This document shows positions 4,185 to 8,227 of a DNA stretch of 35,664 nucleotides, piece after piece. A program made the position numbers and the translations under genes. This DNA is from a virus. Taxonomy: Duplodnaviria > Heunggongvirae > Uroviricota > Caudoviricetes. Within the stretch, counting starts at the first letter, position 1. Each line of letters begins with the position of its first letter. Below the pieces are notes generated by a model. It was not told the DNA's origin and made no database searches. It saw only the letters and a list, made by a program, of their open reading frames with translations. Location: IMG/VR virus record IMGVR_UViG_3300045988_119994; one strand, 5' to 3'.

Positions 4185-4733
4185 TTAATTTCGCTGTCTG
4201 GATTGTTTATGCATCTTATGCAGCTCTTTAAAGCGTTCCATAAACATCCCGTAGGCATGGCCCGGTGCCAGTGGAATCACGTTGAACATATCTGTTGCCG
4301 GGATGCCTTCCAGTACAGGCCAGAAAGAGCCATCATCAAGCCCGAGATCGCGGCGTTCGGTTGCCAGCATGATGAGATCGGCATATTTCACGGGCGTACT
4401 CATAACCGGGGGTAACCCGTATTTCTCACGGATTACGGCGTCTATTTTTTCTTCCATCTGTTTATAGTCAGGAAGAAGGCGTTTCAGTGGAGCGGGGATG
4501 TCCTGGCAATACACTTCTGTTGCATCATGCATTAACGCTTCAAAAGCAAATTCCTGCGGTACCAGTTGGCTGCAAAGAACCGCATGTTGGGCGACGCTGT
4601 AGAAGTGTGAAAGATGTCCTGCAAAGCGACAGATATTTGAAAGGGAAAACGCGATATCGTTAATAACGATATCGTCTTTATTTATCCTGTCATAATAAAA
4701 ATGCTTCCCAGAAAAAGTTTTAATAAATGACAT
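4185..4733 (-). CDS. yfdR: HD-domain 5'-deoxynucleotidase, YfdR/YfbR-like
   Basis: SVAQHAV...MHDATEVYCQDIPAP motif (His...HD...E...D) typical of YfbR/YfdR family; ATG at 4733 with GGAGAA SD; 182 aa; synteny with YfdQ- and YfdP-like genes. Confidence 0.75.
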   Translation of the reverse strand: MSFIKTFSGKHFYYDRINKDDIVINDIAFSLSNICRFAGHLSHFYSVAQHAVLCSQLVPQEFAFEALMHDATEVYCQDIPAPLKRLLPDYKQMEEKIDAVIREKYGLPPVMSTPVKYADLIMLATERRDLGLDDGSFWPVLEGIPATDMFNVIPLAPGHAYGMFMERFKELHKMHKQSRQRN

Positions 4734-4827
4734 TTTGTTCTCCACGTTATTTGCGCTGCACCGCACTGAATTCTGGTAAAAGGAAGCCCTCACCATCCGG
4801 CGATTATTGAGTTAATTACGTTTCCAT

Positions 4828-4861: not shown

Positions 4862-5686
4862 TCAGGCGGTGAAAGTACCAATAAAGGTTTCTACTTTGCT
4901 GTCTTTGAATTTCTCAACAAGCAGATCGCGAAATTCGTTAGCCATTTCTTCCTGCACCGCCTCCAGCTGAATAATGCGCAGAACAAGTACAGGACGATCG
5001 CCAGTGATAATGCTGAGGCGTAATTTAAAAGAACGTTCTTTCAGACCTTCAAACGGAACGCATTTAAATTCAAATGCCACTGGCATAATGTCTTTGGTCT
5101 TCGCTTCGACAGACTCCATCAGGGAGCGTTTGCCGCTGAAGTCATTGTCTTCAAAATCAGCAGTCTGGTTCGCTTCAATTGTGATTTTACGGATCGCCGC
5201 AGCCGCTTTGGTTGCCTGAATGGCGTCACCATTAGCATCAAAGCCCACAAGGTTGTCGGCCCAGTCTTCAATCCATTCTGCCAGTGATTTCTGGGAGTTA
5301 CGCTCGCCGTGAACAGACAACAGAGCAGAGAACGGTGCTGTCTTTTTCAGTTTGAGAGTGGCGGTGTTATCTGCGTGGCCTGGTTCATCAATAGTACCCA
5401 GGTTAAGCACACTGACGGCACGCATATTATCAGCATCGATAAAGCAGCGGGTGCCTTCATCTGCAAGATCTTTAGAATAACGGGTAAAGTCATCAATGCT
5501 GGCAGTGGAAAGCGCACCACGGAAACGGAAGCGATTTAAATTAAATTTTTCCAGGTCATGAATGCGGAAATTCTCAGGCAATGCCACAGCATCGGCACCA
5601 ATCTTACTGATAATTTCATTAACACCCTGAGCAGAAATAAGGGCATGGATTTGATTAATTGCGGTTGCGTCTAAGTTCTGAGACAT
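4862..5686 (-). CDS. yfdQ: conserved prophage early protein, YfdQ-like (DUF2303 family as recalled)
   Basis: 274-aa ORF, GAGGA SD upstream of ATG at 5686; size and position between YfdP-like and YfdR-like genes match the CPS-53 yfdP-yfdQ-yfdR arrangement; identification from memory. Confidence 0.65.
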
Positions 5687-5751: not shown

Positions 5752-6114
5752 TTAACGACCTGCTGCGCGGAGTTTTCCGTCAGGTTCACCGGCAAGAGTC
5801 AGTAACTGTCCCTGGTCTTCCTGCAGAATAGTCAGGCGACCACCGCGATTGACATACATCGGCGTTTCGGTGGTGTCTTCTTCGGAAATTTTCCCGCGGT
5901 TAGTCGGGCGAACATATGAGAGTTTGTGTTTGATTTTCACACGGTTCTCATCAAATGGTTCGATTTCCAGGTTGAGTGAGACCTTACCTTTGGTTTTCGT
6001 GTTCATCACACCGGAAGCGACTTCACTGAGAACTGCGCCGATTTTGGTTTCAAATACGCCGCCGTCCAGCTCCCCGATAAATGCCTGCACATCAGTACTG
6101 CGTTCGCTAGCCAT
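5752..6114 (-). CDS. yfdP: conserved prophage early protein, YfdP-like
   Basis: 120-aa ORF from ATG at 6114 with GAGGAG SD (track ORF extends N-terminally through GC-rich sequence, judged non-coding); synteny as above; symbol tentative. Confidence 0.6.
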   Translation of the reverse strand: MASERSTDVQAFIGELDGGVFETKIGAVLSEVASGVMNTKTKGKVSLNLEIEPFDENRVKIKHKLSYVRPTNRGKISEEDTTETPMYVNRGGRLTILQEDQGQLLTLAGEPDGKLRAAGR

Positions 6115-6162
6115 TTTGCTGCTCCTCATCATATCGACCCTGCAAGGCCGATTAGTTTCTCC

Positions 6163-6251
6163 ACAAAACAGAGAAGAACACCTGCGGTGGCAGCCGCCAG
6201 GATGGATTGGGTTATGAGCCCGTCGTCCGGTGATGCTCTTCTCTGTTTTGT
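6163..6251. other. long inverted repeat (17/18 bp arms, 53-nt loop) inside a GC-rich non-coding stretch
   Basis: ACAAAACAGAGAAGAACA at 6163-6180 pairs with TGCTCTTCTCTGTTTTGT at 6234-6251; A-tract before and T-tract after. Confidence 0.5.
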
Positions 6252-6515
6252 AAAAAGGACGGTACCAGCCGGAAGCAAGGGTACAAACTGGTACCGCCAG
6301 GACTACACACAGCATAAAGTTGTGGTGCCGGGTGCCTCCCGGTGCCTGGCGAAGGTTGCACACCAGGCGGGTGGGTATCCACAGAAGGTCGACTGTCAGC
6401 CTCAACCTTAACCCGCGTGCGCTGAGCCGCATTCACCACAACGCTAAGGATTCTCTCTGGTTGAAAATACTTAGCTGTTATGTGCCTGCTTTTAGCCACA
6501 TCAGGCGAGGTGGAC

Positions 6516-6567
6516 CTGGTTATTCCCCAACAACAAGGATTCGGTTAATCTGGTTATCCCCAACAAC
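6516..6567. repeat. two direct repeats CTGGTTAT(T)CCCCAACAAC immediately upstream of the 6583 ORF
   Basis: Copies at 6516-6534 and 6550-6567, 34 bp apart; possible regulator-binding sites. Confidence 0.5.
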
Positions 6568-6582
6568 GCAAAAGGAAAAGAA

Positions 6583-7017
6583 ATGTCCGGTAATATCTAT
6601 ACGCTGTACAAATCCCACTGTGAAAATGTTGGAAAGTATCGGGGCATTGAAATCAGTGGGGTAGTGTCATCAGTCGAAATAAGCAAAGTTGAATCAAGGG
6701 CAACATTACTTACTCTTTTGGACCTTGTCTTACATGAGCACCGGAAGAAATTCGGCACTCCCTATAATCAGTTGAATGGGAAAAAGGCTCTGGTTCACCT
6801 TATTCTGATGAAGCATCACTGGATGCCAAAACAGATTAATGAGATGAAATTTGATGAACTTCTTCTTTCAATTCAGGATGAACTCACACTTGATAAAATA
6901 AGCGTAACCGCCCAGAAATTTTTAGATTATCGAGACTGGAGATCACAAATTCATCACTTTGATGATTTTGACGAAAATGAATGGGATCCTAATTTGTCTG
7001 CACAATATCTAAAGTAA
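6583..7017 (+). CDS. hypothetical protein (immunity-region gene opposing the early-left operon)
   Basis: 144-aa ORF, AGGA SD 7 nt upstream of ATG; AT-richer than flanks; no recognisable motif. Confidence 0.5.
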   Translation: MSGNIYTLYKSHCENVGKYRGIEISGVVSSVEISKVESRATLLTLLDLVLHEHRKKFGTPYNQLNGKKALVHLILMKHHWMPKQINEMKFDELLLSIQDELTLDKISVTAQKFLDYRDWRSQIHHFDDFDENEWDPNLSAQYLK

Positions 7018-7195: not shown

Positions 7196-7254
7196 TTCAC
7201 ATCTCCTCAAGTTATCAGTTACTTGTTGATGGGGACCAGATTGTTAAAGAGCTA

Positions 7255-7278: not shown

Positions 7279-7443
7279 TTGCTAACGAATCATCCTGGAC
7301 TTCATATGCCCCAGGCGGCTACTTCGTGGGCGTCCTGCCTGTTCGTTTTTGACATTTACTGACTGCTTACGACACATGCACCGTGTTGCAACCAGATTTT
7401 GTTGTAATCCTGTAGTTGGTCTGGAACAAAAGATAAAATTAAA

Positions 7444-7480
7444 TTGCGAGATATGCAAGTGATATTTGCGAGATATGCAA
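7444..7480. promoter_or_regulatory. oL-like operators: two identical 15-bp sites TTGCGAGATATGCAA, 22 bp centre to centre
   Basis: Sites at 7444-7458 and 7466-7480; TTGC-N7-GCAA inverted half-sites; same motif recurs in the cI-cro intergenic region. Confidence 0.6.
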
Positions 7481-7534: not shown

Positions 7535-8227
7535 TTAATTATGTCTCTTAAGGGTTTGCGACTGACTGATTAAGACCTTTCCAAAGACCATGAATCGGTG
7601 TTCGTTTTCGCTAGTAATTCCCCATTCACGGTAAATCTGGTTATCAGAAATCACCAGCAGTTTGTCAGGAATCATTTGAAGTCTTTTAACGTATATTTTG
7701 TCATCAAAACCAAAGACATATATACCATCACCATCAAACTGATTGATGCTGACATCAACGAAGATGAGATCTCCTGGCTCAATGGTTGGACACATACTGT
7801 CCCCACGAACGTTGATAACTTTGATGTGATTGGCTGGTCGTCCGCCGAACATTGATACAGCATTATCAGTTCTGTATTCGATGGCATGAATCACATCAAT
7901 GACATCACCGCCCTGGATAAGGCCATTTCCCGCACTGGCACTGATATCCAGCATTTCAATACGGAACACATCCTTCACCTGCGCAACATCCTCATTATTA
8001 CTGTTTTTATATACAGTATTACTTTTGTGGGCAGAGGTAAAGAGATCAGCAATATCAACACCTAAGCTCTTGGCAATATTACTCAGTGTTTGTTCGGTAA
8101 ATTGTTTTTGCTTACCCGTTTCTAAGCGCGAGATGTTCGCCGCATCTACTCCTATCGCTTCAGCGAGATCGGCGATTTTCATGTTCTTCGCTTGGCGAAG
8201 TTGTCTGACTCGGTTTCCTATGTTCAT
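7535..8227 (-). CDS. cI: CI-type repressor (N-terminal HTH, C-terminal peptidase S24 / LexA-like autocleavage domain); CohE-like
   Basis: 230-aa ORF; HTH in MKIADLAEAIGVDAANISRLETGK; C-terminal GDSMCPTIEPGDLIFVD and KRL motifs typical of S24; divergent from cro; weak SD. Confidence 0.9.
   Translation of the reverse strand: MNIGNRVRQLRQAKNMKIADLAEAIGVDAANISRLETGKQKQFTEQTLSNIAKSLGVDIADLFTSAHKSNTVYKNSNNEDVAQVKDVFRIEMLDISASAGNGLIQGGDVIDVIHAIEYRTDNAVSMFGGRPANHIKVINVRGDSMCPTIEPGDLIFVDVSINQFDGDGIYVFGFDDKIYVKRLQMIPDKLLVISDNQIYREWGITSENEHRFMVFGKVLISQSQTLKRHN

Follow-up and report, generated by a model that had tools for sequence, protein, structure and literature searches.

Positions 6115-6582 of the window, the whole stretch of 35,664 nucleotides of phage DNA that was analysed, hold a minus-strand element made of a structured RNA with a pseudoknot, akin to the prophage small RNA family STnc100/PasD, together with a terminator of DicF type and another long hairpin. 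This identification is carried by homology, strand, structure, covariation, a conserved position and the absence of coding conservation. The element is probably, on balance, a non-coding RNA gene that lies in the leftward early operon of a lambdoid prophage of SfIV/e14 type; it would yield a separate small RNA, terminated or processed, comparable to the Hfq-binding RNAs STnc100, PasD and DicF, and set a terminator barrier before yfdPQR. A first-pass annotation had proposed that the early-left transcript contains a structured RNA or an attenuator, and the strand of the operon, the match to a curated family and the covariation of the helices across phages support that proposal; the strand, the family, the closing helix and the pseudoknot were absent from it. 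The features of the locus are listed below.

5752..6114, minus: yfdP-family gene (ORF list; RefSeq annotation of the identical locus; phrog_204, 1.2e-49)
6163..6251, minus: T2, long hairpin, branched at its top, with 21-25 bp in the stem (inverted repeat I1, fold, compensated pairs)
6252..6298, minus: T1, predicted intrinsic terminator (inverted repeat I4, fold, DicF alignment)
6297..6318, minus: linker UUUAUGCUGUGUGUAGUCC (UUUAUGCUGUGUGUAGUCCUGG), unpaired in the centroid fold
6319..6442, minus: structured core, STnc100-like 'GCGGCU' sub-type (Rfam match, own model R1, covariation)
6442-6434 with 6327-6319, minus: P1 closing helix, GUUGUGGUG/CACCACAAC, followed in the core by the junction AAU
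6430-6415, minus: P2 hairpin
6414-6412 with about 6371-6369, minus: P3, GGG with CCC
6368-6361 with 6351-6344, minus: P4
6342-6328, minus: P5, CCGGG-AGGCA-CCCGG
6352..6409, minus: pseudoknot, AAGGUUG (6409-6403) with CAACCUU (6358-6352) (permutation test, sub-family alignment)
6443..6513, minus: conserved 5' region of the module (inverted repeat I3, BLAST boundaries, start of the Rfam match at 6472)
6516-6534 and 6550-6567, no strand assigned: two direct repeats, CTGGTTATTCCCCAACAAC and CTGGTTATCCCCAACAAC (families D3, D4, D5)

Strand and coding status of the region

When the minus-strand RNA (6520→6140) was folded, it reached -158.1 kcal/mol compared to -126.4 ± 5.5 for shuffled sequences (z = -5.8, 0/100), so that its structure is above chance, whereas the plus strand of the region gave a z of only -2.5. 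The strand of the element is that of the leftward early operon, and the RNA unit is ordered 5' to 3' as core (6442→6319), linker (6318→6297), T1 (6298→6258 plus five U's) and T2 (6251→6163). The first early-left gene 3' of the RNA and its two hairpins is yfdP, with its ATG at 6114 and a GAGGAG ribosome-binding site upstream. Every repeat in the first-pass annotation was found, displaced by no more than 1–2 nt from the place given there. A search with our family model R1 detected a single copy of the element and no second one in the window, and ARAGORN detected no tRNA or tmRNA in it. No named RNA for this locus, for ymfH or for ST64B small RNAs was found in the literature.

The earlier view that the region holds no convincing ORF is borne out by broken frames and by the lack of any Pfam family for the overlapping ORFs. 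That the region is protein-coding or decayed, as ymfH (103 aa, minus strand), as a 226-aa extended yfdP (SfIV_34) or as plus-strand ORFs (SfIV_35, phrog_3651), is hardly credible, despite its RefSeq/GenBank coding sequences (ymfH in e14, 'hypothetical protein, frameshifted' in strain E4, SfIV_34/35) and the matches of a plus-strand 74-aa ORF to phrog_3651 (5.8e-50) and of a 49-aa ORF to phrog_33599. These PHROG families group annotated ORFs that overlie the region and have no known function, phrog_3651 being antisense to yfdP, and their matches were interpreted as annotation artefacts. A frameshift was flagged by PGAP itself, and the ORFs overlap one another in three frames. Among 65 close variants, 31 carry a 1-nt indel at 6488 and just 28 keep the 95-aa ORF intact; two further 1-nt indels inside the core separate the window from ST64B, and the substitutions preserve RNA pairs, not codons. 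No reading frame kept among homologues together with a recognisable protein family was found for ymfH, SfIV_34, SfIV_35 or phrog_3651. The decayed gene offered as an alternative in the first pass is thus unsupported, as only the PHROG families derived from overlying ORFs match and the frames are broken among homologues.

Core helices, pseudoknot and family match

The core, about 124 nt in length, comprises helices P1–P5 and the pseudoknot, and is matched by R1 with 71.6 bits. P1, a 9-bp long-range pair (6319-6327/6434-6442, inverted repeat I5), had been missed earlier, whereas the GCCTGG/CCAGGC stem had been noticed and lies at 6344-6349/6363-6368; the three GGTGCC copies also noticed then (6324-6329, 6331-6336 and 6341-6346) correspond to P5 plus the 3' strand of P1. 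Covariation supports P1, P2 and P3, and also P4 (6.36 vs. 3.88 ± 0.11), while P5 is almost invariant, with a single compensatory change, in Qin. The fitted sub-family alignment was 98.8% paired (0/500 shuffles), with a covariation score of 0.592 vs. 0.166. A tRNA-like reading of the P1 and P5 stack is pure speculation. A general tie of the RNA family to tRNA genes was also considered and dropped, a tRNA being present in just 7 of 60 loci.

The pairing of AAGGTTG (6352-6358) with CAACCTT (6403-6409) had gone unseen in the first pass. Its RNA strands lie just 3' of P2/P3 (AAGGUUG) and inside the P4 loop (CAACCUU). In a family-wide permutation the mean best complement was 5.82, compared to 4.58 ± 0.09 with the loops swapped (0/200); 85 of 95 partners begin at most 5 nt from the end of P2, and 57 distinct helix sequences are represented. 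In the sub-family, all seven pairs vary on both sides (hand-fitted alignment).

The Rfam STnc100 model (RF02076) matches the minus strand from 6472 to 6250 over its full length (1-206 of 206) with 43.1 bits (E 1.2e-7). Because this score is under the gathering score of 47 bits, the element falls outside the curated family and is unannotated; the Qin copy of the sub-type scores 34.4 bits against the same model. The core helices of STnc100 are all present, namely the GGUG/CACC closing helix, P2 (with two non-canonical pairs in the sub-type, according to the model alignment), P4 and the CCGGG-AGGCA-CCCGG hairpin that immediately precedes the 3' strand of the closing helix, and the 3' Rho-independent terminator of the family has its counterpart in T1 (6298-6258 plus U5), which aligns to the 3' hairpin of the model. 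By these sequence comparisons, the core is assigned to a divergent sub-type of the STnc100/PasD prophage small RNA family. The loop–junction pseudoknot is missing in the Rfam structure line for STnc100, and this, together with a sub-type that scores below threshold, suggests that the curated model can be improved.

Linker, hairpins and upstream region

T1 consists of an 11-bp stem (GGCGGUACCAG/CUGGUACCGUC) with a 19-nt loop, followed by CCUUUUU, and folds with -21.4 kcal/mol (z -3.05). The stem reported earlier at about 6260-6294 is contained in it as a perfect 9-nt inverted repeat, GGTACCAG/CTGGTACC (6260-6268/6288-6296), and one-sided G-U to G-C changes at 6258/6259 preserve the stem in variants. 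The hairpin is homologous to the terminator hairpin of DicF, since alignment A4 with K-12 DicF has 27 invariant columns that include UGGCGGUA.CAGUU and CCG.CCUUUUUA.

T2 lies immediately upstream of the yfdP ribosome-binding site; it is preceded by an A-run, ends in a U-run and folds with -46.0 kcal/mol (z -6.5). Its arms (6163-6187/6227-6251) are 25 nt long and 84% complementary, with flanking A- and T-runs; the 17/18-bp inverted repeat with a 53-nt loop described in the first pass corresponds to the outer 18 nt, with one A·C mismatch (6178/6236) that is mended from either side in variants. The hairpin is kept in mEp460, phiNP and e14, with four compensated pairs, and we infer that it is a second terminator and a possible RNase III site. 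A terminator scan called neither T1 nor T2.

Between core and T1, the single-stranded linker UUUAUGCUGUGUGUAGUCCUGG is a candidate seed for base pairing. Its sequence UGCUGUGUGUAGUC is kept in e14, phiNP and phiES15, and with one change in ST64B, although terminators or cores differ among these four, whereas DicF and mEp460 have other sequences at this position. A search for linker targets within the window gave short G-U-rich matches only, none of them convincing.

The conserved 5' region contains the hairpin GCUAAGUAUUUUC...GAGAAUCCUUAGC (6475-6443) and an upstream stretch that reaches the mosaic boundary detected by BLAST at 6513. By our own reading, it may hold a weak putative promoter (cTGAtg-N17/18-cATAAc) or may be merely upstream transcript; a consensus scan of 6440-6600 called no promoter adjoining the RNA. 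The two direct repeats reported earlier at 6516-6567 are indeed there; they lie in the divergent intergenic region, shortly before the ATG at 6583, and outside the conserved RNA unit. Their minus-strand sequence is GUUGUUGGGGA(A)UAACCAG and, as GAAUCCUU precedes one copy, the repeats resemble shortened versions of the core's 5' boundary (GAAUCCUUAGC-GUUGUGGUGAAU). PhiR29_1 retains them before another plus-strand gene, and they are absent from SfV, e14 and phiES15, where homology stops at 6513. The earlier suggestion of a regulatory region for the divergent 144-aa gene may hold for 6514-6582 alone, but not for the conserved RNA module, which is bounded at 6513.

The predicted transcript ends, Hfq binding, seed, read-through and processing can be combined as follows. 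Transcription would start at the cI-repressed PL at about 7430, or at the weak promoter near 6500, and the polymerase would enter the element and halt mostly at T1/T2, releasing an RNA of ~180-230 nt. A cut by RNase E in the linker may trim this RNA to a DicF-like species of ~70 nt, Hfq would be bound via the terminator and the U-tail, and the conserved linker would pair with target mRNAs. T1 and T2 together would act as a barrier like lambda tL1, so that yfdP-yfdQ-yfdR would be made only by polymerase rendered termination-resistant; a boxA-type site is present at 7241-7252 in the PL leader. RNase III may then cut the long stem of T2, separating the RNA from the downstream mRNA. Several observations were counted against a terminated RNA: PL is repressed in the lysogen, hence lysogen expression is a prediction only; the consensus scan gave no promoter and the window no convincing linker target; and T1 has only five U's in its tail and a large loop.

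Distribution of copies, function of the core and known relatives

Parts of the present 501-nt stretch were matched by 2861 of the 5426 complete E. coli genomes searched, and at least 80% of it by 1324. The element is found downstream of the repressor gene and on the early-left strand in SfIV, SfV, SfII, e14, ST64B, 118970_sal3 and phiES15, lying just before kil in phiES15 and, in ST64B, in the ~450 unannotated nt that directly follow the repressor gene. ST64B, phiES15 and P1-like phages share the sub-type, and K-12 Qin has an unannotated copy of it between dicF and dicB, at NC_000913 1649451-1649586. The e14 homologue, annotated as ymfH (b1142), is first in the SOS-induced ymfH-xisE-intE unit (PMC2634741). 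Against STnc100, genome copies that share the 20-nt 3' core reach 50-104 bits, and canonical family members also occur in tandem arrays of 2-4 copies.

The contexts of the sub-type are mixed, with a terminator in 31 cases, a ribosome-binding site and ORF in 19 and neither in 8. The core lies 23-40 nt before the start codon of dicB, tciA (TerB-like) or small membrane-protein genes, or before a terminator, and in P1-like phages, Qin and several chromosomes it is followed by a ribosome-binding site and ORF with no terminator, for which a cis-acting role fits at least as well as a terminated RNA. It is possible, but unlikely, that the core is chiefly a cis-acting leader with the terminated RNA as a by-product, whether as an attenuator that responds to a ligand or protein, as a domain for processing or stability, or even as a ribozyme. 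The genes under its control would be yfdPQR in this prophage, kil in phiES15, dicB in Qin and tciA in P1-like phages, and a holin or KdgM porin gene for the canonical type. Such mixed 'expression platforms' are typical of riboswitch-like leaders, the core and its downstream gene are always co-oriented, and in 15 species an orthologous porin gene of the KdgM family is found downstream of a canonical core. The core also has invariant unpaired nucleotides, the pseudoknot and a variable insert, and its very high conservation, far above that of the variable 3' part, suggests that it has a job of its own that the reading as a terminated RNA does not name. In contrast, the core is not seen to occlude the ribosome-binding sites downstream, leaders do not usually come in tandem arrays of 2-4 copies, and relatives have been shown experimentally to be discrete Hfq-bound small RNAs (PMC8550237, PMC7873438). 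A 7-nt alternative pairing of CCUGGCG (linker/T1) with CGCCAGG (P4) is present in the window but is not kept in ST64B or phiES15, so that no covariation speaks for a core–T1 antiterminator switch.

A put- or nut-type processive antitermination site, whose nascent RNA would bind RNA polymerase as HK022 putL does and allow read-through of T1/T2 and later early-left terminators, is very improbable. As in HK022 put, a structured nascent RNA lies 3' of an early promoter and 5' of terminators, here two of them followed by the early-left genes; the ORFs around PL include no evident N-like protein rich in arginine, and the unannotated location in ST64B would fit as well. However, put RNAs are ~70 nt long with two stems and no such pseudoknot (PMC9378689), and a filter-free search with R1 of HK022 22000-40751, including the immunity region, gave at best 7 bits (E 1.3), a result that bears on similarity to the model, not on function; a put-like antiterminator was rejected for this lack of similarity. 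Moreover, the element is ~1 kb from PL, behind a convergent gene, the boxA-type site in the PL leader is separate from it, and canonical members at operon ends, upstream of porin genes and in tandem arrays do not suit an antiterminator.

More tentatively than the leader, the pseudoknotted core of ~110-140 nt that STnc100, PasD and the early-left sub-type have in common may itself be a functional RNA domain and not the mere body of a small RNA, set by temperate phages of Enterobacterales before toxic or envelope genes; it could serve in ligand sensing, protein binding, directed processing or self-cleavage. If so, the core would precede dicB, kil, tciA, holin and KdgM porin genes as such a domain, and the Hfq-bound 'sRNAs' would be its terminated or processed products.

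Whatever the function, a widespread element has been miscalled as protein-coding, being annotated as ymfH in K-12, as 'hypothetical protein' or as an extended yfdP, and its identity as RNA removes spurious genes from E. coli annotations. It also ties STnc100/EcOnc27, PasD and DicF, which had been studied separately, into one modular system with a conserved pseudoknotted core, swappable linkers or seeds, and common terminators. With the Qin copy between dicF and dicB, the function of the core is directly testable in a standard laboratory strain.

Regarding known systems, the preferred reading of a terminated small RNA resembles StxS and lambda tR' and tL1 in that a phage operon transcript would be stopped at an intrinsic terminator unless the polymerase is antiterminated, and in that the short product can act as a small RNA (StxS, cited in PMC7873438); there is no sequence relation with these systems, and termination, read-through and product activity are only predicted here.

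With STnc100 the core shares its architecture (closing helix, P2 hairpin with a ..GCG loop, P4, P5 and 3' terminator) and near-identical signature sequences (GGUGAAU; CACCGGGAGGCACCCGGCACCA), and like STnc100/PasD it is carried by prophages in Enterobacterales. It differs in P2 (GCGGCUNAGCGCACGC here, CCCCCUNNGCGGNGGGG there), in the P3/P4 junction (CCCGYC here, CGCGRRYC there) and in having a DicF-type terminator and another linker. Hfq binding and Northern verification are on record for two sets of small RNAs, EcOnc27/sRNA103, which overlaps the predicted STnc100 downstream of stx2B, and PasD1/PasD2 of EPEC (PMC7873438, PMC12711010, PMC8550237). The published STnc100/EcOnc27 and PasD copies belong to the late region (downstream of stx2B; near Q), whereas the present one lies in the early-left operon. 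PasD and STnc100 have been judged homologous in a preprint that makes no mention of DicF, a pseudoknot or ymfH (bioRxiv 10.64898/2026.05.13.724894).

The Rfam DicF model (RF00039) matches 6311-6257 only weakly (15.7 bits, E 2.8; gathering score 48), compared to 76.7 bits for K-12 DicF. The terminator of DicF is nevertheless recognisable here as a hairpin GGCGGUAUCAG...CUG..CCGCC followed by a U-run, and the two hairpins are homologous (UGGCGGUAYCAGUUU ... CCGYCCUUUUU), whereas the 5' single-stranded seed UUUCUGGUGACGUU, which pairs with the known targets of DicF, is replaced by UUUAUGCUGUGUGUAGUCC. [quoted passage not shown] Both elements occupy an early-left-type operon site between the repressor gene and kil/dicB-type genes, and in Qin DicF directly adjoins the same core sub-type, although the order there is DicF then core, whereas here the core comes before the terminator.

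The early-left setting and anatomy of the RNA element

The window is a lambdoid prophage from E. coli or Shigella that resembles SfIV, SfV and e14; its positions 6050-6650 are 99% identical to Shigella phage SfIV. The following genes frame the RNA element:

7535..8227, minus: repressor gene, with cro-like and ymfL-like genes on its right
7195→6989, minus: 68-aa early-left gene, left of the repressor gene
6583..7017, plus: ECs1072-family gene (phrog_5286), a convergent insertion in the early-left operon
5752..6114, minus: yfdP, early-left, with an RBS and then ATG at 6114
4862..5686, minus: yfdQ, early-left
4185..4796, minus: yfdR-like HD hydrolase gene, early-left

The element occupies the gap between yfdP and the plus-strand ECs1072-family gene. 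The latter shares 29 nt with the end of the 68-aa minus-strand gene, and its slot, filled in PhiR29_1 by another plus-strand gene, is moron-like in behaviour.

For this GC-rich stretch (6115-6582), the first-pass annotation had listed several repeats and suggested a structured RNA or attenuator. All of these repeats are present, and the finding is real: what the stretch holds is a divergent member of a known family of prophage RNAs, an unannotated sub-type joined to a DicF-like terminator. A structured RNA is indicated by an Rfam match, by covarying helices and by the fold of the minus-strand RNA 6520→6140, which reached -158.1 kcal/mol (z = -5.8 compared to dinucleotide shuffles), whereas the plus strand reached only z = -2.5; in several helices, G·U pairs of the minus strand correspond to A·C mismatches on the plus strand. 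Two pairings had been overlooked, a perfect 9-bp long-range one (6319-6327 with 6434-6442) and that of AAGGTTG (6352-6358) with CAACCTT (6403-6409). The anatomy of the RNA is as follows:

6475-6443, minus: 5' hairpin
6442-6434 with 6327-6319, minus: helix P1, GUUGUGGUG / CACCACAAC
6433-6431, minus: junction J1/2, AAU
6430-6415, minus: P2 hairpin
6414-6412 with about 6371-6369, minus: P3, GGG / CCC
between the P3 strands, minus: variable insert
6368-6361 with 6351-6344, minus: P4
6342-6328, minus: P5, CCGGG-AGGCA-CCCGG
6358-6352 with 6409-6403, minus: H-type pseudoknot, P4 loop CAACCUU with AAGGUUG
6318-6297, minus: linker, UUUAUGCUGUGUGUAGUCCUGG
6298-6258, minus: terminator hairpin T1, then CCUUUUU
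6251-6163, minus: long hairpin T2

The earlier statement that the stretch has no convincing ORF also held: a 1-nt indel at 6488 was found in 31 of 65 close variants, a 95-aa ORF was intact in only 28 of the 65, and two 1-nt indels within the core separate the window from ST64B. No ORF over the RNA gave a Pfam match, the sole protein-family matches being PHROGs of unknown function which, in our reading, were built from mis-called ORFs. At the level of sequence, this evidence argues against translation of these ORFs. CDSs annotated over the RNA are ymfH in K-12, a "hypothetical protein, frameshifted" of PGAP in strain E4, SfIV_34 (a 226-aa extended yfdP) and SfIV_35. These database "proteins", together with phrog_33599 and phrog_3651 (plus-strand ORFs antisense to yfdP), lie over the RNA or antisense to yfdP (5849-6411, plus, in the window) and look like annotation artefacts.

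Family membership, sub-type and covariation

The RNA folding and covariance search proposed in the first-pass annotation yielded both a family match and compensatory changes. At a permissive threshold, Rfam gave one clear match, STnc100 (RF02076), over 6472→6250 of the minus strand, full length, with 43.1 bits (E 1.2e-7); as this is just under the gathering score of 47, the match goes unreported at curated thresholds. The three GGTGCC copies noticed previously are the STnc100 signature 3' core, CACCGGGAGGCACCCGGCACCA. When 20 nt of this 3' signature were scanned in species-representative genomes, at least 120 loci were found, mostly in Enterobacterales, the few matches in unrelated taxa looking like chance or contamination. 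Copies in 15 loci put through Rfam were called STnc100 (50-104 bits), often as tandem arrays adjoining IsrI, C4/isrK and occasional tRNAs; a tRNA gene was found in only 7 of the 60 loci examined for one. Head-to-tail arrays of 2-4 STnc100-type cores, about 220-340 nt apart and sometimes interleaved with tRNA, IsrI or C4/isrK RNAs, were seen at comparison loci L166 (6323-7018), L183 (2787-3238), L167 (894-2010) and L207 (3717-5512). A canonical core with a KdgM-family porin gene about 85-200 nt downstream, and a terminator-like hairpin between the two, was seen in Klebsiella, Kosakonia, Raoultella, Enterobacter and related genera (L181 1841-1975 and 14 others, including L137, L150, L155, L158, L160, L168, L172, L195 and L219); these loci are apparently outside prophages.

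The window's core differs from canonical STnc100 in P2 (GCGGCUNAGCGCACGC instead of CCCCCUNNGCGGNGGGG), and an exact scan of IMG/VR for its 5' signature found at least 120 contigs. This sub-type occurs in early-left operons (SfIV, SfV, SfII, e14, ST64B, 118970_sal3 and phiES15), where the conserved linker and a terminator come next, followed in phiES15 by kil; in P1-like phages (SJ46, RCS47), where ~36 nt separate the core from the start codon of tciA, whose product weakly matches TerB, or where small membrane-protein genes follow it; in some chromosomes; and in E. coli K-12, where it lies within the Qin prophage between dicF and dicB (NC_000913.3 1649451-1649586, corresponding to L251 1952-2087). 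The Qin copy scored 62.6 bits (E 5e-17) with the family model built here but only 34.4 bits with Rfam STnc100; 23 nt separate its end from the dicB start codon, and its P5 has the compensatory form CCUGG/CCAGG. No RNA annotation was found in RefSeq at any of these four kinds of place.

When 108 diverse cores of phage and genome origin were aligned, RNAalifold recovered P1, P2, P3 and P5, with compensatory changes in P1-P3, as exemplified by the P3 pair at columns 36/117 (GC 44, CG 17, AU 16, UA 14). For P4, 6.36 contiguous pairs were observed versus 3.88 ± 0.11 when 5' strands were swapped between sequences. The pseudoknot was assessed without bias by swapping loops, the best complement being 5.82 versus 4.58 ± 0.09 with swapped loops; the observed value was reached in 0 of 200 permutations. 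Its upstream partner starts no more than 5 nt from where P2 ends in 85 of the 95 sequences, and the helix takes 57 different sequences. Within the window's sub-type (17 distinct sequences), all 7 pseudoknot pairs showed two-sided changes and 98.8% of cells pair, in an alignment hand-fitted to the structure and so biased towards it. The pseudoknot is absent from the structure line of the Rfam STnc100 model as printed and goes without mention in the Pas/STnc100 preprint (bioRxiv 10.64898/2026.05.13.724894). In the window's lineage, the minimum-energy fold has the pseudoknot 5' strand AAGGUUGA in a local pairing with UCGACCUU instead (6383-6410, minus); such a pairing is only weak in ST64B and phiES15 and may be chance or a lineage-specific switch.

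Modularity of core, linker and terminator

The linker UGCUGUGUGUAGUC is kept in e14, phiNP and phiES15, and with one change in ST64B, although the terminators of ST64B and phiES15 differ and phiNP has a different structured insert. Both mEp460 (L248 1567-1709) and phiNP (L249 about 1590-1745) retain P1-like flanks (GUUGUGG ... CCACAAC), T1 and T2 around another structured insert, phiNP with the window's linker and mEp460 with a different one; our model gave 19.8 bits for mEp460 and no match in phiNP. Therefore, the core behaves like an exchangeable cassette, and the combinations found in relatives show a modular unit whose core, linker or seed, and terminator are exchanged by recombination. 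Boundaries of the mosaic were located at about 6138/6152, 6299, 6513 and 6567. T2 has a stem of 21-25 bp (-46 kcal/mol, z = -6.5) with some compensated pairs, and its one A·C mismatch is repaired from either side in variants.

The direct repeats at 6516-6567 are outside the conserved RNA module and are kept in PhiR29_1 ahead of a different plus-strand gene. Their minus-strand sequence, (GAAUCCUU)GUUGUUGGGGAAUAACCAG, resembles the core's 5' edge (GAAUCCUUAGC GUUGUGGUGAAU). We infer from this likeness that recombination probably left them behind as shortened copies of the core boundary, which may have found a second use in the divergent gene's promoter region.

Proposed mechanism and comparison with known RNAs

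No consensus promoter was found next to the RNA, which lies ~1 kb downstream of PL (about 7430-7460, minus) on the same strand. A 15-nt operator, TTGCATATCTCGCAA, occurs in two identical copies (7466-7480 and 7444-7458) that overlap this PL-like promoter; the terminator of the repressor gene (7515-7498) lies just to the right. The PL leader contains a hairpin (7273-7254) directly followed by a perfect rrn-type boxA, GCUCUUUAACAA, at 7252-7241 (minus; one match versus 0.16 expected), which suggests that the early-left operon is subject to antitermination of the Nus-factor type; near the leader, no N-like arginine-rich protein was evident. The same leader is present in PhiR29_1, and phiNP has only its upstream part. 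The SOS induction of the e14 "ymfH-xisE-intE" unit (PMC2634741) fits transcription from the repressor-controlled side.

DicF arises from a polycistronic transcript through termination together with RNase III and RNase E (bioRxiv 10.1101/2023.04.14.536235); by analogy, the RNA would be derived from the early-left transcript, with termination at T1/T2 and processing. It would pair with other RNAs in the manner of Hfq-type small RNAs, using the conserved linker, and T1 and T2 would act as a gate ahead of yfdPQR and the genes beyond until antitermination sets in. The core may instead be a cis-acting domain, as dicB, tciA and other small genes start directly after it, its conservation far exceeds that of the 3' part, and canonical copies precede P21-type holin genes and, in 15 species, an orthologous KdgM-family porin gene (PF06178, 2e-63). 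Nevertheless, this possibility was ranked second because no conserved terminator/antiterminator alternative was found.

The proposed base-pairing RNA has described relatives. STnc100 is a prophage small RNA of common origin with PasD1/PasD2 of EPEC (bioRxiv 10.64898/2026.05.13.724894); PasD RNAs are Hfq-dependent with many RIL-seq partners (PMC8550237), and the STnc100 copy downstream of stx2B overlaps EcOnc27/sRNA103, Hfq-bound and verified by Northern blot (PMC12711010, PMC7873438). The DicF terminator hairpin is homologous to T1, with invariant UGGCGGUA.CAGUU ... CCG.CCUUUUUA, whereas its seed differs from the single-stranded part of the window's RNA. New with respect to these systems are the pseudoknot, the early-left/P1/Qin niche of the sub-type, the mis-annotation of the RNA as ymfH and the modular link of STnc100/PasD with DicF.
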